Shown here piece by piece: positions 491-51,396 of a stretch of 64,000 nucleotides of DNA. The DNA comes from Antedon mediterranea (lineage: Eukaryota; Animalia; Echinodermata), in assembly GCF_964355755.1 (NCBI RefSeq), contig NC_092678.1, positions 22,895,365 through 22,959,364 of the forward strand, given 5' to 3'. The position numbers and the translations under genes were made by a program. How positions within the stretch are numbered: the stretch's first letter is position 1; each line of letters opens with the position of its first letter. Under the pieces are notes generated by a model. The model saw nothing but the letters and a program-made list of their open reading frames with translations, did no database searches and was not told the DNA's origin.

Positions 491-3400
491 TTTTTTTGTT
501 TTCCGTATGCAATTGAAAATTCTTTTATTTTTGTTTTTACAAGCTCCCATAACAAACTTGCACTTACAGGTTCTCTATTATTTTTTAGTATTGAAACATC
601 AATTATTACATATAATGTATAGATATAAAGACCATTGACAAATAAACAAAATTGTACAATAAATCGAGTCAAATGTAATTTAATCAAGTTCTATTATACC
701 CCCAAAAAAAAAAGAAAATACACACTCATAAAAGTAATTTATAATTTAAAACGATTAATAAAAACCAATAAAATGTATCCTCGGTTTATATAATCGATAT
801 TATAAATTAAAATATAAAATATTGAGGCCCGATAATGATCGACGATAAATAGATAAATATAGATTTTTCTTACATAAAACAAAATAGATTCAAAAGTTAT
901 CCTATACTTCTAGGATAAATAATAGGCCAAAAATGTTTATACATAGCCTGTATTTAAAATAGATACAACACCACAAACATTAGTAATTAGTAATTAGAGC
1001 AACAGTAAGATTGTCCTGATACTTTACTTTTAAAAAATACTACAAATAATAGATAAGATCATTGAATTATCATCGATATTCAGAAGGTAGTATTTAAACT
1101 GGGTAGGCGACATTTTGATTCAATATGCGAAACGCAAATACCGTAATATGTTATTTAAATAAATTTAGCTTAATTAATTATGACTGAAGGTAAATAACAA
1201 TAACAAGACCTACCCATAAGAAAATATAAATAGTTAAAATTAATAATAGAAAAAGTGAAATGTATCCTCGTAAGAATAGAAGAAAATTAGAAGATGTAGC
1301 TATAATTATTAAACATATTAAAACTTTATATAAAATATTTAAAAGACGAAATAAATGCGCTTTAAATATAGGTATACTAGTTTCTATATACCAACTGTTC
1401 AAATCTTCAGTTGCTAAAGTTTTGTCATTCCTTGGTATTACTAAAATTGGGCGATTCTCTTTAATTTCTAAAGTTGTGTAATTCCCTTCAATTGCTAAAA
1501 CAAATGTTCGGATTAATGATGTTCTGTAAATCTTCGTAAGGTCATTTCCATTGATAGATATCAGGTCACTTTTGATTATTATATTATTTTTATACCATTC
1601 ACTCAGCATGTCATTAACAATAATACCTGTTAATTTACAATTATTCATAGAAAGACGTCTTAATTTTGGAAATATAATCAATATATTAGCTAGTGTACTT
1701 CCTTTGATTGATGATAGGTCAATGCCATAAAAAAAAGACTATTCCATCTAAATCTATAACGACTAGGTGATATTAAAAAATCGTGTAATTGTTCAGCTGA
1801 CATACTATAACTACCCCAAGTGTGGCTTTGAGGGCCCAGCTGTGTTTCTAATAAATCAATAATGTTTCCAAGTAATTCGGTATCAATATCTGAGAGATCA
1901 TTTCCATGTAACTTGATAACATTTTCTTTTGACTTTAGATAGTTTATATCTACTTCATTCAACATGTCAACTATTTGTTTGCTTGATAATCGAGAATACG
2001 CCACATCGAAATCTTCTAAATCTTTAGAAGTGTTTAATATACGACCTAATAAAGATCCATTTATAGACGCTGGTGAGTAGATCCTGAGCTTAAAAGTCTT
2101 CAATTTAACCAAAGCTTTACTATGTTCACATTCTTCTAATATTGTGTTAATATGTGAACCACCTATATTATGACGTTCTTCATTAACAGATTTTGTAGAT
2201 TAGAGAAGTTTTGAAGTAGTTTGCAAATCTGTGAGTCAATAGTAGTGTTATATTTGAATTCATCAATGGACCACTGAAAGGAAGCTACTTCCTCATCAAA
2301 ACGGTATTTTTTCCATTCGTCTGAGAGGATTTTAAGAACTTTATCACCCCATTTATGAAGTAATGATATCATATACCTACTGTTTCGTACTTGACGCTTT
2401 GACAGATATCGTAATAAGATTTCAACGTGTGCTACTAACCTACATACATTACCAGATGACTCAATGTTTGATTCTTCTATGATTGATATTATAGTTTTAG
2501 ATATTACTATTTCCCCCTTGTTTGTAAAATCATCTGCAAACATTTTCATTTGTTGGAATAAATGCAAATCTTTTTAATATAGCATCTTTAAAGAATTTTC
2601 TAAATTGTCAACATGTATTTTCATTTCAGATGACATGTGTTTATCCAATGATTTCACTACATTGTGTTCGTGCTCTTGATTTACATATTTAAAATATTCT
2701 AAAAAAGAGTAATAATTTGAGAGCCTATTCACCAACCAGTGTTTCATTAATTTGTCTGCATTAGGACCTAGAAAACTAATAGTGAAAACTCTTGTCATAT
2801 GTAAATACTCGCTCGTCCTTAAGTTCTCGTATTCCTGAGATGTTAAAGTGTCAATTTTTTCCGACAAGTAAAACCCGGCTAGCGCTTCTGACAATAACTT
2901 ATGTGGACATCTGTAAGTCTCGACAAAATCATCCTGAACAGTAGGGTCATCTTTGTAAACAAATCCTAATTTCAACGATAAGTCAACTAAAGTTTCATTT
3001 TTTACTTGGTCATTTAACTTCTTTTTAGTAAAATGAAGTAAATTATTCTGTAAACCAATGTAACTAATTTTCCCTAATTTTACAATTGCATTTTTATAGT
3101 CAGTTGAAATGTTGTCAATGTTTGATATCCGTTTTTGCTCATTACTTCTGTTAATGTACTGATTTAAAATGGAACGGAAGATTTCTTTAAAAAAATGTTG
3201 AAAATCTTTAGGAATTATTTGTTCGTGTTGCCATATAACACACATTTTAAGTAATAGAAACGGAGATATAAAGAGTTCAAATACTTTTTTGTGATCACCA
3301 CCCCAATTATTTTTCACTGAATCAAGTTTAAATTCGTTAATCAATAACTGGCCCAGATTATGGTTGTTTACGAAATTGAAATATCTATTTATATATGGTT

Positions 3401-4216
3401 TTATGTTTTCTGTACAGAATCCGTCTACTTTCACATATACATCAAAATGTTTATATAAGCTTTCAGTAAAACCCGGCCGTGAAGTCAGAATAACTGTGAT
3501 GTCTTCCAATTCTTCTTTTTTAAATATCAGTGGAATGTCTACCCCAGATGCTAACTCATCTAATCCATCTATTAGAAGAACTAAATCTTTGTCGTATGTC
3601 TCTATAAAAGTTCTTATAATAGTTGCATTTACATAGATACCTGTTTTTTCTGAAAGTTCTTTAACTTAACTGAATCAACGATAATATCTATGATTGTTCG
3701 ACCTTTCTTGATGTCTCTTACGTTTACAATAAATAATATTTTACCAATAAACGTATCATCAGAATCGGTCGCCCAGTTATAAGATATATATTGAAGTAAA
3801 GTTGTCTTACCAATTCCCCCATTTCCTGTCATTAATACCTTACACGATTCTCTGGACTTTATAATACCTAATAAGTGTTGTAAATACGTGGGCTTTGTTA
3901 GTCCCGCTCGTGTAATAATATATAGTTTTGGATCGGTAAACATCTTTGAAATATCATACCATGTATTTTCTCTCCATGTAGGTGGTCTTATATATGGGCT
4001 TTTGAATGTTTTACTCTGTTCTGCTGTTATAAAGTTTCGAATACGCTCATCTGAAATGAAGGCATTTAGTAATTCAATTCAACTTATGAAAAGTTTAAAT
4101 AAAATAGACAAACAGAAGACGATTTTTCCGAAATTTGAAACTGGCAAACAGTAAATCTTCAATAAACCTAGTAAATACAATTTCAAAAAAATGTCTGTAT
4201 TAATAAATTGTATTAC

Positions 4217-4288
4217 CTTTTGTTAATGTGGGGTGTGAAAGTTTGTATGCGACTACAGCTACGACAATGAAGGCAATGACCATCAGTA
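4217..4288 (-). CDS. 72-nt phase 1-1 exon encoding a hydrophobic helix (xLMVIAFIVVAVVAYKLSHPTLTK), gene 1
   Basis: ttacAG acceptor and GTaata donor. It splices in frame to the NACHT exon at 4050 (D-ERIRNF) and has positional equivalents in genes 2 and 3. Confidence 0.75.
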
Positions 4289-4793
4289 CTGTAACAAAAA
4301 AATGTTGACGGTCTTATATTTATTTACTTTATTTATAGGCCTAAAGTTACAAGTACAGAGGTACACATGAATTGTAAACTAAAAATACACCTTCGAATAT
4401 TTCTTATCTTACCTGTTGACATTTTCCATTCATTATGAAAAAAAATTTGGGAGGTTGTAAATTTTCTGTTACCCAGATTTGGCACTGTATGGTGAAATAA
4501 AATTAGTGTAAGTGTAATCAATTTTAAAAAGCACTAATAACGGAACTTTAAGTTACCCAAAACCAATCATTATTGTACTATTTAAATTACTGTATTTGTT
4601 ATAATATAATAAATAGGGAACTTTTGCATTATATTACATCCATCGGGACGGTAATTAACAAAGCGTGACGGTTATTTCGAGAAAAACCGACGGCAACCAT
4701 CCCCCTCCCCTTTCTCCTCATCGCGGGCTTGGTGGGTGTGTTTGAAAAGATTCTTGAAATTTTAGTTAAAATAATACTGTGTACTTTGGCTAA

Positions 4794-5048
4794 AGATGTA
4801 TTGTCCTCCAAAATCATGAAAAATATAGATTTACAAAATCAGACTTTGAATAGGTAATTTTGCAGTTTTAATTAAGGCAAAATAAACAGTCAATTTTAAC
4901 CAAAAAAACCCATTGTTTGACATACTATCTTTTGCTGTAATTTACATTTTCCAGGGAAATAATTTTTAGTCAAAGTGAATAACTATTATGTAACATTAAA
5001 ATGGCATATTCAATTTAAAAAAATATTTTTTCAGGGGTCAATATATAT
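4794..5048. mobile_element. Kolobok-like MITE, degraded copy
   Basis: Starts agatgtattgtcc and ends ggggtcaatatatat-TTAA. Same family as 61061-61372. Confidence 0.6.
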
Positions 5049-5605: not shown

Positions 5606-6113
5606 CTAGTAAAATATGTTGTGCCACATTGTTCAGAAGTTTTGCAAACACTTCAATCTTCTGTTGTGAATCCAGTCCTCCGGCTTTCTCAATGTGATAT
5701 ACAACATCCCATATGTTGTCATAGTTGAAGGCACGCAGTTTGTAAAAACCAGTCACTATTTTCAAGTCACCTTTTCCAACGTTTTTAAGCGCTCTAAACA
5801 GTGCTCTACGATATTCTGTTAGTAGGCTTACTGTCTCTGTGCATTGAATACTGTTCTTGTATTCTGTTATATAATCTCTTGCTGAGGCCAGATCAGTTAC
5901 TTCAGCTATGTCGGACAACAGTTCCACATTATTTTTAGAAATAATTCCATGACTAGTAAGTTTGTTAAACAGGTCTAAGGCTAAGTGTGATTGATCTAGA
6001 TCTCCAATAGATAGAATACCATATAGAAGCATTCTTAACTCTCGGACTGTCTTACCAGCATAGTGTTGGCTAAGGTTTTCCAAAAAGATTTGGAATTTTA
6101 AATTTTCATCCAT
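5606..6113 (-). CDS. Tandem death-effector-domain exon of NLR gene 1
   Basis: Two DED-like helical units (LFNKLTSHGIISKNNVELLSDI; LTEYRRALFRAL...WDVVYHIEK). Acceptor at 6121-6122 and phase-1 GT donor at 5604-5605. Close paralog at 40075-40576. Confidence 0.75.
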
Positions 6114-19600: not shown

Positions 19601-21378
19601 GGACGAGTGGTCCCACTCTAACTTATACTGGACGACTAAGGGGGTACCCTAGTATAATCCCACCAAGTGGCTCCTAGGAACAATCAGCCATTTTCTCACA
19701 AATACAGTACCAAATTTCACTATATTTTAAAATATTAATCGTAATTGAGTTACACTCAAATTTTAAAGATAAGGGCTGAGTAAACGGGACCAGTGGTCCC
19801 ACTCTAACTTAAACTGGACAACTAAGGAGGTACCCTAGTATAATCCCACCAAGTGACTCTCGGGAACAATCCGCCATTTTCTCACAAATACAGTATCAAA
19901 TTTCACTATATTTTAAAATATTAATCGTAATTGAGTTACACTCAAATTTTAAAGATAAGAGCTGAGTAAACGGGACCAGTGGTCCCACTCTAACTTAAAC
20001 TGGACAACTAAGGGGGTACCCTAGTATAATCCCACCAAGTGACTCTCGGGAACAATCCGCCATTTTCTCACAAATACAGTATCAAATTTCACTATATTTT
20101 AAAATATTAATCGTAATTGAGTTACACTCAAACGTTAAAGATGAGGGCTGAGTAAACGGGACCAGTGGTCCCACTCTAACTTAAACTGGACAACTAAGGA
20201 GGTACCCTAGTATAATCCCACCAAGTGACTCTCGGGAACAGTCTGCCATTTTCTCACAAATACAGTATCAAATTTCACTATATTTTAAAATATTAATCGT
20301 AATTGAGTTACACTCAAATTTTAAAGATAAGGGCTGAGTAAACGGGACCAGTGGTCCCACTCTAGCTTAAACTGGACAACTTATAAGGAGGTACCCTAGT
20401 ATAATCCCACCAAGTGACTCTCGGGAAAAATCCGCCATTTTCTCACAAATACAGTATCAAATTTCACTATATTTTAAAATATTAATCGTAATTGAGTTAC
20501 ACTCAAACGTTAAAGATGAGGGCTGAGTAAACGGGACCAGTGGTCCCACTCTAACTTCTACTGGACAACTAAGGAGGTACCCTAGTATAATCCCACCAAG
20601 TGACTCCCAGGAACAATCCGCCATTTTCTCACAAATACAGTATCAATTTTCACTATATTTTAACATTTTTTACCGTAATTGAGTTACACTCAAATTTAAA
20701 AGATGACGGCTGAGTAAACGGAACCAGTGGTCGCACTCTAACTTATACTGGACGACTAAGGATGTACCTTAGTATAATCTCACCATGTGACTCCCAGGAA
20801 CAATCCGCCGTTTTCTCACAAATACAGTATCTAATTTCACTATATTTTAAAAATCGTAAATGAGTTACACTCAAATTTAAAAGATGAGGGCTGAGTAAAC
20901 GGTACCAGTGGTCCCACTCTAACTTATACTGTACGACTATCTAAGGAGGTACCCTAGTATAATCCCACCAAGTGACTCCCAGGAACAATCCGCCATTTTC
21001 TCACCAATACAGTTTCAAATTTAACTATATTTTAAAAATTGTAATTGAGTTACACTCAAATTTTAAAGATGAGGGCTAAAGTAAACGGGACCAGTGGTCG
21101 CACTCTAACTTATACTGGACGACTAAGGAGGTACCCTAGTATAATCCCACCAAGTGACTCCCAGGAACAATCCGCCATTTTCTCACAAATACAGTTTCAA
21201 ATTTAACTAGGCCTATATTTTAAAAATCGTAATTGAGTTACACTCAAATTTTAAAGATGAGGGCTGAGTAAACGGGACCAGTGGTCCCACTCTAACTTAT
21301 ACTGGACGACTAATGGGGTACCCTAGTATAATCCCACCAAGTGAATCCAAGGAACAATCCGCCGTTTTTCTCACAAAT
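7665..21378. repeat. Satellite DNA, ~70 head-to-tail monomers of 181 bp (variants ~185 bp)
   Basis: The 181-bp period is read directly (taattgag/taaatgag at 7671, 7852, 8033). The monomer contains the palindrome GGGACCA-G-TGGTCCC and a KpnI site. There are no unique spacers. Confidence 0.98.
14230..15057. mobile_element. MITE with 18-bp perfect TIRs (PIF/Harbinger-like) inserted in the satellite
   Basis: GAGCCCCTTTCTCACAGA ... TCTGTGAGAAAGGGGCTC, with internal subterminal repeats of ctgtgagaa/ttctcacag. There is no transposase ORF and no matching TSD. Confidence 0.85.
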
Positions 21379-32627: not shown

Positions 32628-35600
32628 CTACAGTATTTGTGTGATTGTAACAAAAACCCAACCAAAACATTCCAAACGTTTAGCAAGTTCTAATATGTGA
32701 CCTAAAGAAGTCGAGTCCCATTCATATGAATAATTTTGAGAAGAGAGGCGAAATTTCTTCAATTTAACAAAAGTACTACTACATTCCCATATCACTGACT
32801 TAATACGTTGATTATTTAGTGTTTCCGAATCACTAGACAAACGTATATAGAGAAATTCCAAGTCAGGAAAGGTTTGAAATAATTTGCACATTTGTGATCC
32901 AGTCAACTGTTCGTCATCTTCAATATAATAAAACGAACGTATTTCCTCAACTAAATGATATGTCTTCCATTCATTTGAGAGAATTGTAAGAGCTTTATCG
33001 CCCCATTTGTCAAATAGTTTTATTAAATATCTGTCGTACATTGATGGCATAATTTCATATTCTGCTTTGTATAGTTGTAGTATGATTGATATGTGAGCTA
33101 CAATCTTGCTCACCTTTTCAGGTGAATATTCATTTGATTTTATAATTGACACTACATTATTTAATACTGCATTCTGATCCTTTTTAAGTTTGTATAAAAA
33201 CAATGTTAGACATTTTATTAGGTGGAAATTGTCCCTTTTTCTAAGAAAAGTTTTAAAGGAATTGCTTAGATATTCAAAATGTATTTTCACTTCTGGAGAT
33301 ATTTGGTTGTCCAATGAATTCAGTACCTTTTCTTGGTATGTTTTATTTACATATATGAAATATTTTGAAAATGAATAATAATTAGAAGCCCTATTTACCC
33401 ACCAGTGTTTCATTAGTTTGTCGGCATTCGGACCTAGAAAACTAATAGTGAAAAATCTTGTCATGTGTAAATAAGTGTTCGTCCTTATTTTCTCACATTC
33501 CTCAGAATCTAAAGTCTCTATTTCTTTAGACAAGTAAAATGCGGCCAGTGCCTCAGACAATGACTTATGTGGAAATCGGTAAGTCTCCACAAAAGTATCC
33601 TGAAAAGTAGGAGGATCTTTGTAAACAAATCCTAATTTCAGCGATAAGTCAACTAAACTTTCATTTTCTACGGTTTCAAGCAATTGTATTTTAGTAAAAT
33701 GAAGTGCATTATTCTGTAAAGCAATGTAACTAACGTTTCCTAATAATAAAATTGCATATTTATAATTAGGTGGAATGCTCTCAAACTTTCCTATAGGTTT
33801 TGTAGTAGGTCTATCGCCTCTGTTAATATACTGATTTAAAGTTAAACGGAAATATTCTGTATAAAAATGTTGAAAATCTTCATAAAATAATGTATCGTTA
33901 TATTGCCACGCAGTACACAATTTAAGTAATATAAATGGTGATGATAAGAGTGATCTAGTGGTGTTAGCAGCAATCCAATTTTCTGTTGAATCAAACTTAT
34001 GTGTAGTAATCAATGAATGACCCAGATATGGTTCTCCAATAAATCTGAAATATCTGTTAATATAATGCTTTATATTTTCTGTATCGAATCCTTCTACTTT
34101 TACATGCATGTCATAACATTTATATACACTTTCAGCAAAACCTGGTCGTGAAGTAAGAATAACTGTGCTGTATGGTAGTTCTTCACATTTTAATATTGGA
34201 ATATCCACCCCAGATTTTAACTCATCAAATCCATCTATTAGAACAATAAATTTGTTGTGGTATTTCTGAATAAAAGATTTTATTTTAATTGGGGAAATAT
34301 CTGTGTTTTTAGATAAAACCCATTTAACATTATCGGCAATTATATCTGTGATGGTTTGGCCTGCCTCGATATCCCTCACGTTTACAAGAAATAATATTTT
34401 ACCAGCAAACGTATCATCAGAATCGGTTGCCCAATTGTAAGATATATATCGAAGTAAAGCTGTTTTACCCATTCCCCCATTTCCTGTCATCAACACCTTT
34501 CTTGAGTCTCTAGACTTTATGATATCCAGTAATTCTTGCAATGTGTGCTTTTCGTTTTTCTTTCTTGATGTAGTAGTATATATAATTGGATCGGTAAACA
34601 TCTGCGAAATATTGTAATTTTCAAACTGTGAGTTCCACGTTGGTGGTCTTATATTCGGGTCTTTTAATTTGTTTTTCTGTTCTGCCCTTAAAAGGTTTCG
34701 AATAAGCTCATCTGAAATTAAGACAATTATCAAAGTTTACATGTGTTGACGATGTAGATTGGTGTGGTGAACTTGACTGCTTAGTCCTGGGTTGGGTTCA
34801 AGGGTGGCGCCAGGATCTTCCCGACGCGGGGGCTACATTCCCCGACGAGGGGGCTATGCGAGCGAAGCGAGCATCACAAGGCTGGGGGCCAGGGGGCCGC
34901 CAAGGGCCCTCGCTGGGGGTCCAGGGGGCGAAGCCCCCGGAAGCAACGCGTTCTAGCGTCATTTGAGGTCATTTTAATCAGATTTAGGGTAGCCATTTTT
35001 TCCATTTTTTATAATGCATAAATAAAATACTGCGTGCAAAAAAACGATGCGCGATGACTGTTTCAATCCATATTTTTCAATTTAAAAAATAAAAGTTTAA
35101 AGAAAATTTAGAAAAATAGAGTTGGAGGTCCTAGAAATTGGACTTATTATACTTCAAAACATGAAACAAAATATATAAGTCCCTATCATGGTTTTGACTG
35201 AGCTAAGAAATGTTTTAAAAATAGAGATGTTAGGTCCCGGAAAATGCACTTCTTGTACTTCGAAATATGACCAGCTTTATTGTTGGGGGGCTGAGCTAAG
35301 AAAATGTTTAAAACTAGAGCTGCAGGTCTTCAAAAAATTGCATTTCATACTTTGGAAACATCAGGCCCAGAGGCTTAAAAAACGCAAGCGTAGACCTTTT
35401 TCAGTCGGGGAAATAAGTTTATTCCTCCCAAGTGTATGCCTGCGTACCATCTGGCCTTCCGGGTGGTGAGAAATTCATGACATACAGGACATTGAAAATT
35501 TAATAACTTAGCTATAATAAGATGTTGGCTAAGCGAAAATGGCATGTTTTTTTGTTTAGTAATGGATGAAATATTTATTTTAGGTGCCCCACGGTACAGA

Positions 35601-38600
35601 AGGTTACTTGTAAATTAAAAAATTGGTGAACATACGAACAATTAACATAATTCGTTTTTGCTGTAGTGTAGCGTACGTCGACACAGTACACGACGTAACC
35701 GTCGGTAAACTTCGCCTGGAAAATAACTACAGTACACATTTTGGTCCCTGGATGGAACATGATATCACGACCCAACGTTGAACGATTCGTACAAAGGGAT
35801 ACCGCCAGACAAGTGCGTACCTATAGCTATTGTTTAGTAGTAAGTTAGATCGCTGGCAATAATGAATGCATATAAAGTGCATAATATCACTCTGCCGTAC
35901 TCTCACGGTCAATGAAACGTCGAGGTTTTCTAGGCGCTGAAGCTACGAAGTGAACGCGAACGAATTATATTCCCCGACAAAAAGTACCCGAACCGTCGGT
36001 AAACTTCGCCTGGAAAATAACTACATTACACATTTTGGTCCCTGGATGGAACTTGATATCACGCGTCTCGACCCAACGTTGAACGATTCGTACAAAGGGA
36101 TACCGCCAGACAAGTGCGTACCTAGCTAATGTTTAGTAGTAAGTTAGATCGCTGGCAATAATGAATGCATATAAATTGCATAATAGCACTCTGACGTACT
36201 CTCAATGTCAATGAAACGTCGCGGTTTTCTAGGCGCTGAAGCTACCAAATGAACGCGAACGTTTTTTACTGTACTGTATATTATATTCCCCGACAAAAGT
36301 ACCCGTGTTCCCTTCGGTAACCGTCGGTAAACTTCGCCTGGAAAATAACTACATTACACATTTTGGTCCCTGGATGGAACATGATATCACGCGTCTCGAC
36401 CCAACGGTGAACGATTCGTACAAAGGGATACCGCCAAACAAGTGCGTACTAGCTATTGTTTAGTAGTTAGATCTCTGGCAATAATGAATGCATAAAAGTG
36501 CATAATAGCCCTCTGACGTACTCTCACGGTCAATGGAACGTCGTGGTTTTCTAGGCGCTGAAGCTATATGAAGTGAACGCGAACGTTTTTTACTGTATAT
36601 TATATTCCCCGACAAAAAGTACCCGTGTTCCCCGACGGGGGGGGCTAGGGCTCCCCGACGAGGGGGCTAGAGCCCCCGTAGCCCCCCCCCCCCCCCCCCC
36701 CCGCTGGCGCCACCACTGGTTGGGTTGGATGTAGGGTAAAATAAGAATTGATTTACAATTAAGGTTACTAAAAATTATAAAACACTAAATCTAAAAAAGA
36801 GTTAAAGAAGTGCCATACAACTTAAGCGAACTACATTCATAATAATAAAATATTAATCCTAATTACCGTCTTTTAATAATATGGTATCTGGAATCACACT
36901 GTAAAGTACACCTACCATGACGACAATCAATGCAATGGCCGTTAGGCGTAAAGCTGCAGGAAACGAAAAAAAATGTGTATGCTTTATTATTATATTAAAT
37001 TAAGTTGTAAATAAAGAAGGAAAACATGTTAAATTTTGTAATATTTTGCAACTTATCGTAACACAGGTAAACAGCTGTAAAGATGCCGTTTCAATTAAAT
37101 TAAAGATTCCTTCTTTTGCCGTGTTATGCTTGATATTGTAAATTTAATATATTCACTAATTATATTATAGTCAATAATTATATTCACTAATGTGTACCCG
37201 ACAATTTTCAAAATATAGTTTGGTGAGATTTGGAATAGTAAAAATAATATTTAGGTTATAAAATAACTCAATAAATAATAAATAGACGCAACGTTCCCGG
37301 AAATTGTTTCAGGCGATGCATGCGCATACCAGGACAGTAAATTAAATTCTTTATGTCAAAAAATCAAGGAATTCATGAAAATTCCCTGTATCTGTTGACC
37401 GACACGTCATCCGGAGCTATCAAATTGGACAGAGATGTCATATCACTGGTCATTCACTATTAAATTAACGCTGAGTTTATGTTTTATGTGTTTTTAGCCT
37501 CATTTAAAAATGTTAATTTTCTGTACAGATTTATAAGACCTTCATGAAAAAAAAACTTTACAGAAAATTGGTAATATCACAATGTTTCAGTTTAAGGTAG
37601 ACCTACTGTAATATAAATTGGTCATTTTAACTTTATCAGCTGTTAATTATGTGATGTTTTTTGACCTGCCTCGATGTTTCTGACGTGTAGGCATGGCTAT
37701 TTTTACCAGCAATCGTAGCGTCTGAATCCGTCAGTTATAAAATATACAGATACATTAACGTGGTAATTGTTTTCCCAACTCCATGTAATCGACATAGTCG
37801 ATCCTAGAAGTGTAGCAGCCGCCTCCTCATCCCCAAAATTTACTCTACGCCTCTGGTCAATACCTTTCATAAGTCCCTGTACGAGTTATAATACACATGA
37901 GTTCTTAGAATGATGGAAGCGTGTTCTACTATTTAGTGGTATGTAGAACTACAACAATCTGTAAAATAATAATAATCAATACCTAATCTCCATGTCGATT
38001 GTTTTATTTTTAAGGGTTTGATTCCGTCTTTCTGTTCAGTTCTGTAATAGTCGCGAATAATTTTATCTGAAATAAAAATACAGATTACAGATTGTCTACA
38101 TAGTACTCAAAATTAAAGACACAGAAGAAGTATTGAGGTGGGTGTTTTTAGAATCTGAAACTGACCAAATTCACAAACATTTAACTAGATTATACATGTT
38201 TCGGACTATGCCGACTTATGGGTTGAGATTTAAACATTTTAAGTTTTTTTTCTGCTGTCTGTGTCCATAAATATGTATTTTCTTATTTATATACTGTATA
38301 GGCCTAAATGCCTATTATAATAGCCTACATGCATTGCCATGATTAAATAACTGAATGCTGATTATATATTGTCATGATTAAATACTTACGGGTATCAACA
38401 AAATTAACAGCTTCTATTACATGGTTCAGTCTACGATGTCTTAACTTCCCGATGAATTTCATCATGTTTTCTTCCGAGAGAATCATAGTACGTTCAAGAT
38501 CCATGATCAAACTCCAGCTATCTTCATATGGTTTAAACAATGTTTCTTCATACATCTGACTTATTTTGGTTGTATCACTAGGTGACATACTATTGCCTAG

Positions 38601-40576
38601 TCGTATTACCATCTGTCTGTATTCACTAAATGCCGCAACTCTTTCTTCTGTTCTTGGGCGTAACATTTCTAAATCTTTCATTTTATATATTCGCTTCCAA
38701 ACTTCATGTTGTCCCGTTATAGTTATGGTATCATATATAAGAGTGGGATTGTTGTGATCCAGTCTCTGAGTATACAACAAGTCTAATAATTCCATCATTG
38801 ACGAAGCGTTCTCTAGTCTAGCTTTGTCTGGAACCAAGTCTTCGTACAACACTTTAATCATCTTGATTAAACGAAAGTGGTCAAACCAATGTGCCACAAT
38901 ACTTTTCAACTGTTCGAATTGATGCGTTGTTAAGGCTAGGTAATAAAATAAAATACATCATCATATTTACATCTCTGAGAAAATAATGTCCACGTCTATA
39001 TAGGCCTGGTAAGAAATTTCTAAAATAATCTGTATCTTTTGATAGGCACATTTATGTGTCTAGCAGGATTAACAAGGCTATACACCTGGCTGCATTCGCG
39101 TGCGCAAATTTGAGTTAGTATTTACCGACCGACCGACTGACCAACCGACCGACATAGTGAGCTGTAGAGTCACTTTTGCACGCGACTTAAAATGGGGGAA
39201 CAAATGTCATATTTGTTTTTGTCTATAGACAGGTAGGGTAGGTATCATGGAGTTTAGTCCAATTCGGAAATGGTATTGTATCTGTTATTTTAGATACAAT
39301 TTATTTTAATCTAATTCTATACTCTTTTCTGTCTAAACTCTCTTTTCTTTTCGTCGCAATAAACATAGTTGTTCTACCTGTTGTTCCCAAACGCCTAGGA
39401 TTTATTATCATTTTAGTATCATAATATAGATTTTTATAAAAGACTTAAGGATTTGAGTTTAATTTCATTGAGATTAATGTCTTCTTTGTTCAATTTAAAC
39501 ATAGGCATACTTTATCGTCACGAGGTCCATTTAAACTGCGATGAGATAAACAAACTAATATATAAAATGATTTAATTGTACTACCCAGACCTAATAACTT
39601 GTACTTCGAAATCTGTAAAATCATTGATAAATTGTATTAAATATATTTATTAATGTGTTAATTATAACGCTCTTTCACTGACTAATTGCTAATTCACGTT
39701 AGGCTTCATACCTGTTCTCTGTTTTTGTTCTGGTTCTGCAGTCAGTATTGTTGCTGTTGCTGGTTCTGGTGTTTGAATAACCGCAGGCTGGTAAGGTGTT
39801 GCTATAATTCACATGCAGTTACACAAAGAAAAACAGAAAAAAAAAATATAATAAGCTTAAATTTACCAAAATTGACTACGAATTGCAACTGAACTATAAA
39901 AACACCGGAGAATGTTATAAAATAAATATTGAGATATTTTAGGAATTACTTAACCAATTTAATGTTTGATTGTAATTGTTTTGTATTTAAATAATCAATG
40001 TTATGTTAATTAATGTGCAAATTACCACTAAAATACTTTGTAATTTAGACTAATAATGTATGAGGTAGGCATACCTAGTAGAACACGTTTTGCCGTTTCG
40101 TTAATACAATTCGCAAACTTGTCAATGTTGTTTTGGGAATCCAAGCGTCCAGATTTCTCAATGTGATATACAGCATCCCATATATTGTCAAAGTTGAAGA
40201 CACTCAGGTTGTAGAAAGCTATCAGTTTTCCCAAGTCATGTCCTCCAACCTGTTTTAGTGCTATAAACAGTGCTCTGCGGTGTACTGTTAGTAGGCTTAC
40301 TGTCTCTGTGCATTGCGCAGTGTTCTTGTATTCTGTTATACAATCTCTTGCTGAGCTCAGCATAGTTACTTCAGCAATGTCTGACAACAATTCCACATTA
40401 TTTTTAGAAATAATCCCATGGTCAGTAAGCTTGTTAAACAGGTTTAAGGCCAAGTGTGATTGATCCAGATCTTCAATAGGCAAAATACCATATAGAAGCA
40501 TTCTCAACTCTTTTACTGTCACACCAGCATAGTGTTTGCTAAGTTTGCCCAGAAAGATTAAGAAATTTTCATCCAT
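32628..40576 (-). CDS. NLR gene 2: two tandem-DED exons - TM - NACHT - truncated LRR (~1100-1130 aa)
   Basis: All-phase-1 GT-AG model: 40576-40075, 39801-39712, 38935-38390, (38066-37983 optional), 36953-36867 and 34711-32628, open throughout. Motifs: Walker A GNGGMGKT, Walker B VLIDGFDE, ILTSRP and YRFPHKSLSEALAAFYL. The linker exon set is uncertain. Confidence 0.75.
34799..36718. mobile_element. Non-autonomous hAT-like DNA transposon in the last intron of gene 2
   Basis: TIRs caagggtggcgccag / ctggcgccaccactg (13/15 match) and a perfect 8-bp TSD GTTGGGTT (34791-34798 and 36719-36726). The subterminal ccccgacg..ggggcta repeats are GC-rich. Confidence 0.9.
35697..36632. repeat. Three tandem ~295-330 bp units inside the hAT element
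   Basis: aaccgtcggtaaacttcgcctggaaaataactac recurs at ~35697, ~35991 and ~36319. Confidence 0.9.
36867..36953 (-). CDS. 87-nt phase 1-1 TM-like exon (xLRLTAIALIVVMVGVLYSVIPDTILLKD), gene 2
   Basis: tttcctgcAG acceptor and GTaatt donor; in frame with the NACHT exon at 34711. Confidence 0.75.
38390..38935 (-). CDS. Second, divergent tandem-DED-like exon of gene 2
   Basis: 546 nt, phase 1-1. SMMELLDLLYTQRLDHNNPTLI and FSEYRQMVIRLG...WSLIMDLER resemble the other DED exons. Confidence 0.65.
39071..39192 (-). mobile_element. Minimal (~120 bp) HINE derivative
   Basis: Both ends of the 30912-31674 family plus the (GGTC)n tract, with the core deleted. Confidence 0.6.
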
Positions 40577-42821: not shown

Positions 42822-45800
42822 AATTCAATTCAATTTCTTTTTATTTCGGAAATATCTTCCATATTAATAAACGTATAAACAGAAAAAAAAATCGTAAACT
42901 CTAAACTTAAGTATATAGAATGCTTCTCCATCTACAATACATTTTGGAGTTATGGAGCATATTTTTTTTGCAAACACAAGCAACAAGGATGTTACCACTA
43001 TTCAACATACGTTGTATGAAACCATAGGTAGATTTTCGCATGTACTCATTAAAGGAAGCGACACCATGTTCAATAAACATTGGACTGGCACTACTACTTC
43101 TAGAGACATTAAGTATACGGCGCAGAGCATTATTGTAACATACATTAAGAGATCTAATATTCTTCATACGATAGTTACACCAAAGGGCTGCACAATACAG
43201 TAAGATCTAAAGAGACAACATTTAACATTGGTAGAGTATTTCATAAATTTGCGATTGAGTGAGTTGCTTCTAATACATAAAGATCTGTACTGACTTTGAA
43301 TGTCAGCCTCATCACTGCAATCACACATAAGACACAAAGATCTGTACTGACTTTGAATGTCAGCCTCATCACTGCAATCACACATAAGACACAAAGTTCT
43401 GTACTGACTTTGAATGTCAGCCTCATCACTGCAATCACACATAAGAATATGACCAAAGTAGGTACCTTTCTCAACATAAGCAAGTTTTTTACCAAAAAGT
43501 TTAGTAATAGAATTACATTCAAGTTTGCAAGTGCGAGGAGAGAAACGCATACAAACAGATTTCTTATCATTAAATAAAACATCATTCTCTTGCGAAAATT
43601 CTTCACAAACATGTACCAATTGCTGGAGACCAGCAACTGAAGGGCCAAGTAGAACAAGATCATCCGCATAACTAAGATGATTCAAGATAATGTTTCTACA
43701 TTGGCAACCCTGGCACAAACCACTTAGTCTACAATTAAGAGTACTAATATATATGTTATAAAGGAGAGGGGACATAACCCCACCCTGTCTAACTCCATTG
43801 GATACTGTAAATGCATTTGAAACAGAGTTTCCCCAACGTATCACAAAACTTTGTTTCTCATACCAACATTTGAGCAATTTAACAATACAAAGATTAATAC
43901 CATTGCTAATGAGCTTATTATAAAGAGTCCAGTGATTGACTCGATCAAAAGCCTTACTGGCATCTAGAAAGCAGGCAAAATCTGGACTACCATTTCATCA
44001 TGTTTTAATAAAAAGATACACGTATCAGTCGAGTCCTTCGATTTAAATGCAAATTGATAGTTATTGGATTTCAGTGAGTTACCACAATGACTGATCAAAA
44101 TAGATTCAAACACCTTAGATTTTCAATTTCAATTTCAAAGCAACATTTATTTTCTCCTTTCATATACAAAATAGATTTCAGTGATCAATAAATATGTAAA
44201 CAAAATTTCGAAAGAAGAAGGTACACGCCCAGAAAGATGAAAAACACATCTTGTGGAGGACGTACCTATTACAGACACAGACAATGAAAATTTATAAAAT
44301 AAAAAAAAATTTAAAATAAAAAAATAAATAAAAAAAAAAAAAATAAATAAAAAAAAAAAAAAAAAATAAAAAATAAAAATAAAAAAAAAAAATTAAAAAA
44401 ATTGACCGAGGAAAAGTTAATATTTGGCAATAAGGTGACTTTTAAGTTTAGATAAAAATGATTTACTAGAAACAGAGTTTAAGATGGGGAGTGGCAGATC
44501 GTTCCAAAAAGTGGGTCCGGAATACCTAATGTTGTGTTGAAAGTGGTTGGTTTTATGGGTTGGAATATGTAATTTTGAACAAATACGGGTATTATGATAA
44601 TGAATTGAAGAATTTGGAGTGAACATGGAGCAGAGATGTTTGGGAAGGTTGGAATTAATAGAAGAAAAGATGAACGAGCCTTGTTGGGTTAGATTGATAT
44701 CGGAGACTTTGAGAAGATTAAGCTTTGAAAAAAAGATGAGATGAATGAGACAGGGGTGGGGCGCCAGATATAACCCTGATGGCCTTTTTTTGAAGAGTTT
44801 GAAGTTTTTTAATACTGGAAGGATAAGAGTTGCACCAGACAATATTGCAATAGTTAAGATAAGGCAGGATGAGGGAGCAGTACAGGATACGAAGAATGTT
44901 AGGGGGTGAAAAAGAAGAAAGTCTAGTGATGATGCCAAGACTTTTTGAAATTTTATTCTCAACAAAATTGATGTGATTTTTCCATGAAAGTCGACTGTCA
45001 AGATGAACTCCTAAAAATGTAGCAGATTGGACTGAGGGAATATCATGATTGTTAATAGAAATGTTATAGTTTGCAGTATCAATGTTTTTAATTTTCTGAG
45101 GGGTCCCAAACAGGATGAAGTTACATTTTTTGTGGTTAAGAGAAAGTTTGTTAGCTGAAAAGTATTGAGACATGAGTGTCAGATTGGTATTAACAGTATT
45201 AAATAAGGTTTGAATATCAGGGTCAGAGTAATAAACAGTGGTGTCGTCAGCATATAGAAAAAAATTAAGAATTGCAGAAGAAAGATATATATCATTAATA
45301 TATAGAATAAATAGGAGGGGGCCAAGAAGAGAGCCCTGGGGAACACCACAAGTAACAGGGTTGAAGTTGGAGACAGAATTAGAATACTTGGTACATTGGA
45401 AACGATTGGTAAGGTAACTTTTGAAAAGATCATATGCGGGCCCTCTAATTCCATAGTGGGATAGTTTAAATAAAAGTATGTTGTGGTCTATTGTGTCGAA
45501 TGCCTTTGACAAATCTATAAAAACGCCGATGGCTAGATGGCCACTTTCAAATGCGTCAACAATTTTGTTTGTTAAGTCAATGAGAGCCATGGGTGTGTTG
45601 TGACCTTTTCTAAAGCCATATTGATTTTTGTGAAGAATGTCATGTTTTGAGATAAATGAAAATGTACGATCGTAGATTACCCTTTCTAAAGCTTTAGAGA
45701 AAATAGAGAGGACAGAGATGGGGCGATAGTTAGAGAAATCAGATTTGTTTCCAGATTTGTAGATAGGGGTAACGCGCGCAAACTTCATCCTGTCTGGGAA

Positions 45801-47230
45801 AACACCCTTTAATAAAGCAAGATTAAAAATATGGGTAAGTGGAAAAGAAATGAGATCGGCAATATGTTTGATGGGCTTGGTTTGGAAATCATCAATACCG
45901 GTTGATTTGTTGTTTTTAAAGGTAGAAATGATTTTAAAAACTTCGGCCTCATTGACTGGAGTAAAGAATATTGAGTTAGGGGTAGGGTTGGGTAAAAAGT
46001 CTTTAAATGATCTGTTACTATTGGGAATTTGATTAGCAAGTGAAGGGCCGATTTCAGAAAAATATTTGTTAAAGGCATTTGAAATTATATTGGAATCATT
46101 AGTCAACTCACCTTGAAAATTGAAAGAAGTATTTGTATGTGTATTATTTGATTTATTGAGCAGGGAATTAATTGATTTCCAAGTTGCCTTAATATCATTT
46201 TTGTGTTTGAGAAACGTTTTGTGAAAATGATTTTTTTTTTGCAGCTTTAATTGTAGTATTTAATTTATTACGGAATTGTTTAAAGGCTGTTTCATTTTTT
46301 TGGGTGGGACAATGGATAAATTTAGAGTACAGTTTATGTTTGTGTTTAATTGAATTAAGTAGGCCATTAGACATCCATGACTTTAATTTATTATTTTTTT
46401 TTTCGCAATTTTTTTTTAAAGCAATAGGTCTATAATTATTCTTATTAGTAATATCACCTGATTTACTCTTAACAATCGGCACTAGAATAACTTTAACAAG
46501 ATCTTTAGTTACATGACCATGGCACAGCATAGCATTAAAGCATAAACTCAATAGGATATGAAGTCGTTTACTACTATATTTAAGATGTTCACCACCCAAA
46601 TCAACAAGTCCGGGTGATTTTTCTACAGAAAGTTTATCAATGCAATTAGATATAAGATCAGGAGTGACATTAATACCAATTAACAGTATTCTAGAGTCTC
46701 CTCTACAAATGCTTTATGAGTCGTGTTATCCACACAGTTAAACAGATTCTCATAATGTTTGGTCCAATGGTTACATATGTTGTATTCACCACTAACATTA
46801 TCAATAACTTCAGAGGTATTAGCTCTAGTATCATTCATATGCTTAACACCTTCCCAAAAACCTTTGTAGTCCCTATTACTGTAAGACTGAGCTAATTTAT
46901 CAGCTCTCAATTGTTGATCATTCTGTTTACACGTGCGTAATGCCAACTTAAAACGAGAACAAGATATTTTCATAGAATGAAACAAGGGCCCATTCCTGGG
47001 TTTGCCGTTAGTTCTCCATAATAAGAAGGCTTCACGAGCAACAGAATGCAGATCAGAAACATAATCATTCCAGCCTGGCACAACATTATATGACTTAGAC
47101 CTAGTATAGTGGGCTTCAAACATTCACTAGATGCACGTTTTAGGCAAGCAAAAATATTGTTATACAGGTCATCAATAGCAAGACGGTGACACTCATTGCT
47201 CATTAATAAGGTGCTTGTTTTGTAATGAAA
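42822..47230 (-). mobile_element. Degraded non-LTR retrotransposon (LINE, CR1/L2-group-like), split by a second LINE
   Basis: RT motifs NYRPIAL (46418-46440), FLDASKAFDRV, GVRQGGVMSP and HLSYADD. It has a (TTGAA)n tail at ~42822-42835 and multiple frameshifts and stops. Confidence 0.9.
44120..46417 (-). mobile_element. 5'-truncated LINE (CR1/L2-group-like RT) nested in the previous LINE
   Basis: ORF 44718-46106 contains NYRPIS, DLSKAFDTIDH, GVPQGSLLGP and LYADD. It has an A-rich 3' UTR and a (TTGAAA)n tail at ~44120-44138, with frameshifts at both ends of the RT ORF. Confidence 0.92.
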
Positions 47231-48221: not shown

Positions 48222-51200
48222 TTAGAAACATCTAATATGTGACCTAATGAAGTCCCATTCATATGAATGATTTTGAGAGCAGAGACGAAATGTCTTCAAT
48301 TTATCAAAAGTACCACTATTTTTACATTCCCGTACCACTGACCTAATACGTTGACTAATCGAATCCGGATCACCAGGCAAACGTATATAGAGAACTTCCA
48401 AGTCAGGAAGGGTTTGAAATAATTTGCAAATTTGTGATCCAGTCAAATGATCGTGATCTTCAATATAGTAGAAAGAACGTATTTCCTCAACTAATTGATA
48501 TGTCTTCCATTCATTTGAAAGAATTTCAAGAGCTTTATCGCCCCATTTTTCAAGTAGTTTAATCAAATATCTGTCATCCATTGATGGCATAATTCCATAT
48601 TCTGCTTTATATAGTTGTAGTATGATTGATATGTGAGCTACAATCTTGCTCACAGTTTCAGGTGAAGAGTCATTTGATTTTATAATTGACACTACATTAT
48701 TTAATACTGCATTCTGGTCTTTTGTAAGTTTATCTGAAAACAATTTTAGAAGTTTTATTAGGTGCAAATTGTCCCTTTTTCTAAGAAAGGTTTTAAAGGA
48801 ATTGCTTAGATATCCAAAATGTATTTTCAATTCTGGAGATATTGGTTTGTTTTCCAATGAATTCAATACTTTTTCTTCGTCGTCTTGGTTGACATACTTG
48901 AAATATTTTGAAAATGAGTAATAATTAGAAGCCCTATTTACCAACCAGTGTTTCATGAATTTGTCTGCATTCGGACCTAAAAAACTAATAGTAACAGCTC
49001 TTGTCATGTGTAAATACGCATTCGTCCTTAGTTTCTCGCATTCCGCAGAATCTAAAGTCTCAATTTTGTTAGACAAGTAAAACCCGGCTAATGCCTCTGA
49101 CAAAAGCTTATGTGGAAATTGGTAAGTCGGCACAAAATCATCTGGAATAATAGGATTTTCTTTGTAAATAAATCCTATTTTCAACGATAAGTCAACTACA
49201 GTTTCATCTCTTCCTAGTTCTTGAAATAGTGTGTCATCAAAATTAAGTACATTTTTCTGTAAGTTAATGTAACTAATGTTTCCTAGTATTAAAATTGCAT
49301 TTCGATAGTCAGTTGGGATTCGGTCATGTTTTGATATCGGTTTTGTACTAGACTTATCACTTCTGTTAATATACTGATTTATTATGGAACGAAAAATTTC
49401 TTTAATATATATTTTAAAATCTTTGGGAATTACTGGGTCTTTTTGCCATAACGTGCACATTTTAAGTAACAAAAATGGGGACGAAAACAGTTCAAATATA
49501 TTTTTGTGATCACCACCCCAAACTCGTTTATCATCAGAGTCAAGTTCAAATGCTTTGATAAATGACTGGCCCAGATCAGGTTTTCCAATAAATTTAAAAT
49601 ACTTGGTAATATAATGATTTATATTTTCTGCAGTGAATCCTTCCACTTTTACATGTACGTCACAATAAGTATATAAATGTGCAGTAAAACCTGGTCGCGA
49701 AGTAAGAATAACTATGCTGTTTTGAAGTTCTTTACTTTTTAATATTGTAATATCTACCCAAGATTTTAACTCATCTAATCCATCTATCAGAAAAACTAAT
49801 TCTTTGGCGTATTTTTTTAGAAAACTTCTTATCATAGTTTCACTTATCTCAAAGTTAACAGAATTATTAATAATTATATCTGGAATAGTTTTATTTGCCT
49901 CGATATCCCGGGCGTTTATAAGAAATAATATTTTACCAGCAAACGTAGCATCGGAATTGGTTGCCCAATTGTAAGATACAAATTGAAGCAACGCTGTCTT
50001 ACCAATTCCTCCATTTCCAGTCATCAACACCTTACTTGAGTCTCTGGACTTTATAATACCCAGTAAGTCTTTTAATGTTTTCGTTTCTCTTTTTTTGTCT
50101 ATAGTGGTATTGAGTATTGGATCTGTAAACAGCTGAGAAATATCGTAGCTAAACTCCGTATAGTTTGGGTCCCACGTTGGTGGTCTTATTGTCGGGGTGT
50201 TTAATTTGTTCGTTTGTTCTGCTGTTAAATAGTTCCGAATAGTTTTATCTGAAATCAAGAATGAACATATAATTAATTGTGCCTATCATCCAGTAAAATA
50301 TTTTAAATGACAAACAATGACACTTTAATTACGATACAAATAATAAACAGCGGGTCTACCTTGGTATAAAGCGTGTAAATATGATATAGTGGCAATTGTG
50401 GCTAGGAAAAAGACCATGAACAAAACCAATAGAGCTATAAAGAAATAAACAAACGTTTACAGTTTTCACTTCTTGTTACAATTTTATTAAAACGGTACTT
50501 TCCAAAAAGAGCAGTTTCAGCCAACCAAACAGTAATTTAGATTTTGTTTGATTTAGAGATAGCTGTAATCACTTTCCATTTTTTCTGTAGTTGTTATAAG
50601 CGGAAACTATTTTATTAACGACAAGCCATAACGGCTATGTTCGCTATCTTGATTCTAGAAGCTTTTTTTCAAATTGTTATTTTCTGTAAAATTCAAAAAC
50701 ACTTACCACAGGTACATATAACTGATTTATATTTAGATCTCCAGTTATCTTGAATTAACACTGTAGGTTACAAAATTGAAATGAAATTTAATGAAAGATA
50801 TCATTTATTTATTGTGAGATACATTAGAAACAAAATATTTATTTATCATACATACCACCACAATCAAATATTTCCATTTTTGCAATTGTGCCAAGACAAT
50901 CGGCAAATGCTTTCACTTTTTCTGGCTTATCTTCTAGCTTTAAATCAATTTCCAGACGAAGTACAACGTCCCAAACATTATCATCCTTGAATCGTGTTAG
51001 GTCGTACTTAGCAATAATGTTTAATAGGGCTCCTTCGTGAGTACGTGTTAGGGCTTTAAACAGTCTCGTACGGTACAACGACAATTTCTCTTCATCGTTA
51101 ATTTGAACGTCATTGTCATTGATATAATCTCTTAAAAGTTTGTCTGCAATCTTCAGTTCTGAAAGTTTTGTAATCTCTAACAGAAAGTTAACATCAGTAG

Positions 51201-51396
51201 GGTTTATTAAATCTTTCTCTTCAAGTGCATTGAATAATGTATTTGCATTGGAATCTGACTTTGTGATAACACTCAAATTTAAGTGGTTAAAAAATAAGAA
51301 TTTTAACCAAAGGTATCTGTCACCGTCATAGCATCTACTGAGATCAGCTTTTAAGTTGTCAAAGTTACTCTTTCTAATATCATCATCACCAGCCAT
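48222..51396 (-). CDS. NLR gene 3: tandem DED - TM - NACHT - truncated LRR, 898 aa
   Basis: Exons 51396-50856, 50760-50707, 50434-50360 and 50248-48222 are all GT-AG and phase 1, giving a 2697-nt open frame. Motifs: Walker A GNGGIGKT, Walker B VFLIDGLDE, ILTSRP and YQFPHKLLSEALAGFYL. Confidence 0.85.
50360..50434 (-). CDS. 75-nt phase 1-1 TM-like exon (ALLVLFMVFFLATIATISYLHALYQ), gene 3
   Basis: ttctttatAG acceptor and GTagac donor, in frame on both sides. Confidence 0.8.

Follow-up and report, generated by a model that had tools for sequence, protein, structure and literature searches.

A conserved hydrophobic exon between the death effector domains and the NACHT module of feather-star NLR-like genes, with a predicted membrane-spanning topology

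The stretch of 64,000 nucleotides from the feather star Antedon mediterranea analysed here (the window; contig NC_092678.1, positions 22,895,365 to 22,959,364) carries three paralogous genes on its minus strand, numbered 1 to 3, which pair death effector domains (DEDs) with a NACHT module. NLRs, the family to which this module points, are by definition cytosolic sensors in which nucleotide switch and effector occupy the same compartment. In gene 3 a predicted transmembrane (TM) helix stands between the two, most of it encoded by a short exon of its own, and this hydrophobic exon is a real feature of gene 3 and its paralogs that is conserved in two feather-star genera. The product is, on balance, probably a single-pass type II protein with the DEDs in the cytosol and the NACHT module in a lumen or outside the cell.

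Judging from the DNA and from RefSeq models of relatives, gene 3 would be spliced from four coding exons with canonical AG/GT ends and three internal junctions, all in phase 1 (Table 1). The predicted product has 898 amino acids and no internal stop, in agreement with the DED-DED-helix-NACHT protein proposed in a sequence-only reading of the window, and consists of a tandem DED, one hydrophobic helix of 26 residues, a NACHT module and only about two repeats resembling leucine-rich repeats (LRRs). An in-frame TGA three codons 5' of the ATG excludes a further upstream coding exon. The helix (residues 193-218) is uncharged throughout and free of proline and glycine; its best 19-residue Kyte-Doolittle (KD) window reaches 2.86 (residues 194-212), the next best in the whole protein is 1.19, and gene 3 has no second TM segment. 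The stop of gene 3 falls at the same end point as that of XP_071959995.1 from A. mediterranea, and the DNA beyond it is still similar to the next LRR-like repeat in another frame; thus, the truncation of the LRR region is old and shared.

The effector and the NACHT module on either side of the helix are of NLR type. A structure model of exon 1 (pLDDT 91) matches the tandem DED of caspase-8/cFLIP (TM-score 0.74, E 1.3e-4), which places a death-fold effector at the N-terminus despite a Pfam DED score of 20.5 bits, below the cut-off of 35.9; a sequence search of the PDB with the DED exon returned nothing meaningful. Pfam recognises the NACHT module at 60.9 bits (cut-off 26.7), with NLRC4 as best PDB match (E 1e-8) and NOD2 also close. 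Pfam finds no LRR in gene 3, where the two repeats are seen by alignment only. Longer arrays occur in XP_033124481.1 (Pfam LRR_4), XP_071961470.1 and gene 1.

Short, open and hydrophobic phase-1 exons with AG..GT borders also precede the NACHT exons of gene 1 (4288-4217, 72 nt) and gene 2 (36953-36867, 87 nt), bearing out the earlier claim that all three paralogs carry one. Unbiased enumeration over both strands of the window gave 28 candidate phase-1 exons, the four most hydrophobic of which are the three TM exons and an alternative-donor form of 50434-50360. Dinucleotide shuffles of the intervals between DED and NACHT yielded such an exon in 2 of 1000 trials for gene 3, 0 of 400 for gene 2 and 4 of 1000 for gene 1, and the TM exons have 36-42% GC against 22-30% in their flanks. 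The TM exons are therefore not AT-rich intron noise. Selection on all three was argued in the sequence-only reading from their shared position, phase, open frame and hydrophobicity; gene 1 is broken, and its open TM exon is thus weak evidence of current selection.

Alternatively, the exon might be a cassette that is seldom or never used, most of the product then being a soluble DED-NACHT protein as in relatives. The exon of gene 3 is a multiple of three, symmetric in phase (1-1), and its in-frame skipping would leave an open product of 873 amino acids, a point against a membrane protein; the broken state of gene 1 also favours disuse of the exon. Such disuse is nevertheless improbable in view of the shuffle test, the inclusion of the helix in all eight RefSeq models of the clade described below, from two genera, and a compositional shift in the NACHT core that tracks the helix. 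A sequencing run presumed to be RNA (X5) behaved like DNA, covering an intron and a high-copy repeat without joints at splice sites, and is evidence neither way.

A profile search of 1.84 billion representative proteins, together with one further search, revealed a large DED-NACHT-LRR family whose named members seen are all from A. mediterranea and Anneissia japonica; the 11 best matches of the gene 3 NACHT exon are likewise all from A. mediterranea (up to 67% identity) or A. japonica. The search for relatives combining DED, TM and NACHT that had been proposed for this window was productive, with eight RefSeq models from the two genera carrying a strong hydrophobic helix N-terminal of NACHT. 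Together with genes 2 and 3 they make up a TM clade of ten members, in all of which the best 19-residue KD window is 2.44-3.62; in 30 soluble relatives whose part N-terminal of Walker A measures 150 residues or more, it does not exceed 1.58, and all 12 relatives added later lack a segment of 2.0 in that region. The ten proteins form one NACHT-core clade (SH-aLRT 89 in a quick IQ-TREE run, FastTree 94) among 53 relatives without a visible helix, some of which are N-terminally incomplete models; a partial match (P0044) was excluded from trees and cysteine counts and an isoform (P0023) from all counts. This distribution, with moderate tree support only, fits a single gain of the helix ahead of the divergence of the two genera. 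A more distant set of 75 NACHT proteins contained two with a hydrophobic stretch N-terminal of Walker A; in one it is at residue 13, in the other some 500 residues upstream of the motif. Atlas returned only generic NACHT clusters, under 0.9, for the DED-TM-NACHT arrangement.

Several features of the clade bear on its topology. Hydropathy scripts, which also served to call the helices, found no signal peptide-like N-terminus in gene 3 or in any of the eight RefSeq members (best 9-residue KD at most 1.34), and the first long hydrophobic segment, of some 20 residues or more, follows a predicted cytosolic N-terminus, as in type II proteins. Since such an N-terminus and a further upstream coding exon are both absent, the helix is read as a signal anchor. 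A folded N-terminal domain is reported to prevent its own translocation and to force the N-cytosolic orientation, and nearly all N-out anchors of G protein-coupled receptors are described as translocating under about 40 residues (PMC6269167). Lysine and arginine within 15 residues of the helix are more numerous on the N side in eight of the ten clade members, equal in one and fewer in one, and the net charge difference across the helix is decisive in three.

Supporting this orientation, three of the ten members have an extra domain between helix and NACHT without a second TM segment. More specifically, XP_033105221.1 has two six-cysteine EGF domains there (Pfam E 1.3e-12). Because EGF domains need an oxidising compartment and these lie between helix and NACHT, the NACHT module would be carried into such a compartment with them. 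XP_071959453.1 and XP_071959549.1 have an FN3 domain in the same place (Atlas 0.92, with all ten best matches FN3). Cysteine makes up 1.11% of the NACHT core (0.54-1.42) in the ten TM members versus 2.46% (1.39-3.56) in the 53 others, only one of which falls inside the range of the TM clade; several positions at which soluble members conserve a cysteine have other residues in the clade, and the N side is alike in both groups (1.18% and 1.04%). Loss of free thiols on the NACHT side alone would suit an oxidising lumen. Hydrophobic C-terminal segments, one followed by two arginines, are found in XP_033124481.1, XP_071961470.1, XP_071959994.1 and gene 1, fitting a predicted ectodomain anchored at both ends, and in five of the ten members a cysteine lying on the N-edge of the helix, or immediately before it, marks a possible palmitoylation site. 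In the AlphaFold model of XP_071959453.1 the segment forms a single helix flanked by low-confidence stretches, by which a buried helix of a soluble domain is disfavoured.

These indications have to be set against a number of observations that weigh the other way. ATP supply is limited outside the cytosol, and all ten clade members have an intact Walker A, Walker B and sensor-1, and nine also the winged-helix histidine, as expected of a cytosolic STAND switch. The charge argument of the sequence-only reading is weak for gene 3 alone (C-minus-N net charge +0.5, neutral; lysine plus arginine 3 vs 2); the difference is 0 in XP_071959994.1, and in gene 2 the count is 1 vs 2. The EGF form is represented by one gene model, and no other example occurs in the best 120 of 290 matches. 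The FN3 scores are under the Pfam cut-off, and the domain is not folded in the model of XP_071959453.1 (pLDDT below 50, only 2 of 38 alignment rows carrying FN3); moreover, FN3 occurs in cytosolic proteins too. The loss of cysteine is a single phylogenetic contrast, as the TM members are one clade. Gene 3 has eight sequons C-terminal of the helix, and sequon density is 0.94 per 100 amino acids in the TM clade versus 0.54 in soluble relatives, but the excess is non-significant in shuffles (52 observed and 43.5 expected in the TM clade vs 118 and 127 in soluble relatives, p 0.15); sequon columns are common to soluble relatives too, and some shared sequons may be helix N-caps. Finally, long and very hydrophobic anchors are reported to favour the N-out orientation where the N-terminus is short or unfolded (PMC6269167).

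A tethered protein that keeps normal NLR logic would account for the intact ATP motifs and for a NACHT module that begins only about five residues past the helix: the helix could be monotopic or re-entrant, or insert only after oligomerisation, leaving DED and NACHT both in the cytosol. This appears unlikely given 26 uncharged residues without proline or glycine in gene 3, disulfide-type EGF domains after the helix in XP_033105221.1 and a cysteine loss restricted to the NACHT side. Effector and NACHT would lie on one side, as in NLRs, only under this alternative or if the exon were skipped.

The orientation could also be the reverse, with NACHT cytosolic and the DEDs in a lumen or outside. AjNLRC4 of Apostichopus japonicus provides a precedent that counts against the type II topology: like the feather-star clade it has a TM segment directly N-terminal of NACHT, with a second after NACHT, and the Ig-TM-NACHT-TM protein is reported with its NACHT intracellular, although unlike the clade it has an Ig ectodomain and is described without DED or LRR (PMC8699970). 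The long hydrophobic anchor, the near-neutral charge of gene 3 and the intact ATP motifs would also agree with this orientation. However, EGF domains would then end up in the cytosol, and DEDs have no known extracellular role. Between 190 and 415 residues of folded DED would moreover have to be translocated without a signal peptide, which is described as prevented (PMC6269167), and the reverse orientation is accordingly very improbable.

The topology evidence is shared by a further possibility, namely type II insertion followed by cleavage at the helix, by signal peptidase or an intramembrane protease, into a secreted NACHT-LRR sensor and/or a cytosolic tandem DED acting as signal or cFLIP-like decoy. 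Such split functions would suit gene 3, which has lost most LRRs, and clade models without complete DEDs; but several members have C-terminal anchors, and most helices, at 24-27 residues, are longer than typical cleaved signals. Cleavage is quite unlikely on these grounds. The single pass advanced in the sequence-only reading stands as the best-supported topology, with hints from relatives in the EGF and FN3 inserts, the NACHT-side cysteine loss and the C-terminal anchors, while still being a prediction.

Under the single-pass type II topology, the helix would act as a signal anchor that leaves the tandem DEDs in the cytosol and places NACHT and LRR in the lumen of the endoplasmic reticulum or endosome, or outside the cell. 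Ligand binding or nucleotide exchange might then drive oligomerisation of NACHT and cluster the helices, a candidate ligand being a microbial pattern or extracellular ATP, and the clustered cytosolic DEDs could nucleate DED filaments and recruit partners of the FADD/caspase-8 type. Ligand, oligomerisation and caspase recruitment are all speculative, the sequence from ligand or nucleotide exchange to DED filament draws on an analogy with NLRC4 and caspase-8 assemblies, and the chain as a whole is rather doubtful. Death receptors such as Fas and TNFR1 are membrane receptors with a cytosolic death-fold domain that are activated by clustering, although they are of type I and have a Cys-rich ectodomain; by analogy, the feather-star TM protein may work like one. 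Gene 3 is not a member of the TNFR superfamily, having no signal peptide, no TNFR repeats and a DED instead of a death domain. A fuller evolutionary scenario is tentative and on the doubtful side: insertion of one exon would have turned an NLR inside out into a death receptor with an ATP-binding NACHT-LRR ring for an ectodomain, sensing extracellular ATP or microbes and nucleating, across the membrane, DED filaments of the caspase-8 type, with EGF and FN3 spacers and C-terminal anchors gained later.

Among solved structures, NLRC4 and NOD2 (PDB 4kxf, 3jbl, 5irm) have the closest NACHT-HD1-WHD-HD2 fold, and the helix of the clade occupies the position of the CARD-NBD linker of NLRC4; in contrast to the topology proposed here both are cytosolic, and they have a CARD effector and a full LRR. 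Soluble crinoid paralogs (e.g. XP_071945180.1, XP_071949634.1) share the tandem-DED and NACHT modules with the clade, but have no TM segment, double the NACHT cysteine, long LRR arrays and often basic linkers resembling nuclear localisation signals (NLS). AjNLR-new, also from the sea cucumber A. japonicus, resembles the clade as an echinoderm membrane protein in which NACHT follows a TM segment; in a 2026 paper that calls itself the first such report, this NACHT is described as extracellular and as binding pathogen-associated molecular patterns (PMC13133943). The topology was derived there from TMHMM, from Dil co-localisation and from the binding shown by recombinant fragments rather than from protease protection or glycosylation; in contrast to the clade, the protein by its description has Ig domains between two TM segments and no death fold, and signals to the cytoskeleton. 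Anthozoan and sponge TM-NLRs are, like the clade, animal NLRs with predicted TM segments (PMC3879445, PMC5094078, PMC12909245). The anthozoan proteins, to which the sequence-only reading had attributed C-terminal TM segments, are instead described with three to five N-terminal ones and no death fold (PMC3879445, PMC5094078), unlike gene 3 with its single helix after the DEDs. For Dysidea, the published NLR table places TM segments before CARD, after LRR, or between NACHT and LRR, and lists none between death fold and NACHT (PMC12909245). Oyster Cys-rich-TM-DED-TRADD-N-STAND proteins are described with DED and STAND both on the cytosolic side (PMC8195603), in contrast to the topology proposed here. 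Death/DED-NACHT proteins are reported from Chiridota in an account whose main text never mentions transmembrane (PMC8913654).

A literature search, thin on subscription journals, found no paper that describes the NLR architecture of crinoids or a death fold-TM-NACHT arrangement, and an extracellular NACHT is claimed in the searched literature for AjNLR-new alone (PMC13133943). The earlier suggestion that the architecture is undescribed is therefore to be narrowed: no paper on it was found, but the layout is already present in RefSeq as uncharacterised proteins and echinoderm TM-NACHT receptors have been published (PMC8699970, PMC13133943). NLRs bound to membranes are known already, as is a single claim of an extracellular NACHT; no publication was found in which a TM segment separates a death-fold effector from NACHT. 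If the switch does work across a membrane from its effector, a STAND ATPase would be able to fold and function in the secretory pathway, and a death receptor would have been invented independently from NLR parts. With closely related soluble paralogs and an exon that can be skipped in frame as built-in controls, the clade would then offer a cleaner test of the lone published claim of an extracellular NACHT.

Table 1. Features of the three paralogs in the window and helix-bearing RefSeq models of the clade
Feature	Position in window	Strand	Remarks
Gene 3 exon 1	50856..51396	-	tandem DED, about residues 1-180; structure model, Pfam score below cut-off
Gene 3 exon 2	50707..50760	-	54-nt linker: basic residues, two juxtamembrane cysteines (196, 198), start of hydrophobic helix
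Gene 3 exon 3	50360..50434	-	75 nt, phase 1-1; most of predicted TM helix (residues 193-218 including exon 2 part)
Gene 3 exon 4	48222..50248	-	NACHT module, helical domain, about two LRR-like repeats, then stop
Gene 3 NACHT motifs (exon 4)			Walker A residue 301, Walker B 377, sensor-1 406, winged-helix His about 603
Gene 2 first tandem-DED exon	40075..40576	-	short upstream exon may add few residues, cf. XP_071959995.1
Gene 2 linker exon	39712..39801	-	90 nt
Gene 2 second tandem-DED-like exon	38390..38935	-	
Gene 2 hydrophobic (TM) exon	36867..36953	-	87 nt, phase 1-1
Gene 2 NACHT exon	32628..34711	-	open
Gene 1 tandem-DED exon	5606..6113	-	
Gene 1 hydrophobic (TM) exon	4217..4288	-	72 nt, phase 1-1; upstream linker exons out of frame or degraded
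Gene 1 NACHT-LRR exon	1178..4050	-	frame changes near 3640, 2176, 1730; hydrophobic C-terminal segments as in XP_071961470.1
XP_071959995.1 (Antedon)			4 DED-TM-NACHT
XP_071959994.1 (Antedon)			2 DED-TM-NACHT-LRR-TM
XP_071961470.1 (Antedon)			helix N-terminal of NACHT; longer LRR array; C-terminal hydrophobic segments
XP_071961087.1 (Antedon)			helix N-terminal of NACHT
XP_071959453.1 and XP_071959549.1 (Antedon)			2 DED-TM-FN3-NACHT
XP_033105221.1 (Anneissia)			TM-EGF-EGF-NACHT
XP_033124481.1 (Anneissia)			partial DED-TM-NACHT-LRR-TM

The tandem-DED and NACHT architecture described for the family in the sequence-only reading applies to gene 3, but gene 2 has four DED-like domains, in a predicted in-frame spliced product of 1102 amino acids. 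A 22-nt micro-exon at 37074 was dropped from the gene 2 model, as it breaks the frame. The intron upstream of the gene 2 TM exon contains a decayed NACHT-exon start with its own acceptor (37950-38066, minus strand), which suggests that gene 2 arose by fusion of two tandem paralogs. The intron between its TM and NACHT exons holds a head-to-tail array (35700-36620) of several diverged units, each of about 290 bases, between ends that are rich in G/C and look inverted (36680-36720 and 34780-34950); the array is likely a non-autonomous DNA element.

Gene 1 is interrupted by a 52-nt linker exon and by its frame changes, and is a probable pseudogene; a contig of run X1, possibly the source sample, agrees with the window across one of the breaks. 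One of its introns contains a high-copy genomic repeat (4790-5015), where contig depths add up to thousands. Between genes 1 and 2 lies a long tandem repeat in which an identical segment recurs every 1848 bases (16809-16868, 18657-18716 and 20501-20560, minus strand), and between genes 2 and 3 are LINE-like fragments of a reverse-transcriptase open reading frame (43164-47123, minus strand), named from motifs by eye.

The wider family shows further domain combinations. A search with the DED exon among longer proteins gave one match, a COR-DED protein of the family whose DED pair is 51% identical to that of gene 3. Fusions in the family (P0032, P0188, P0034, P0193, P0009, P0043, P0021) include an OTU protease and QLQ before NACHT, a TIR-like N-terminus recognised by eye, and COR-DED. 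P0063 (XP_033099151.1, Anneissia) has a short basic tail, a TM segment and then only family-type LRRs, with 17 sequons versus 9.8 expected; it is likely a type II TM-LRR protein without NACHT, and might partner clade members poor in LRRs, gene 3 among them. Basic NLS-like motifs are frequent in the DED-NACHT linkers of soluble paralogs (e.g. P0041, P0044, P0046, P0031). A strict NLS-like pattern is present in this linker in 7 of 33 soluble paralogs and 0 of 8 TM members, hinting at possible nuclear NLRs among the soluble paralogs.

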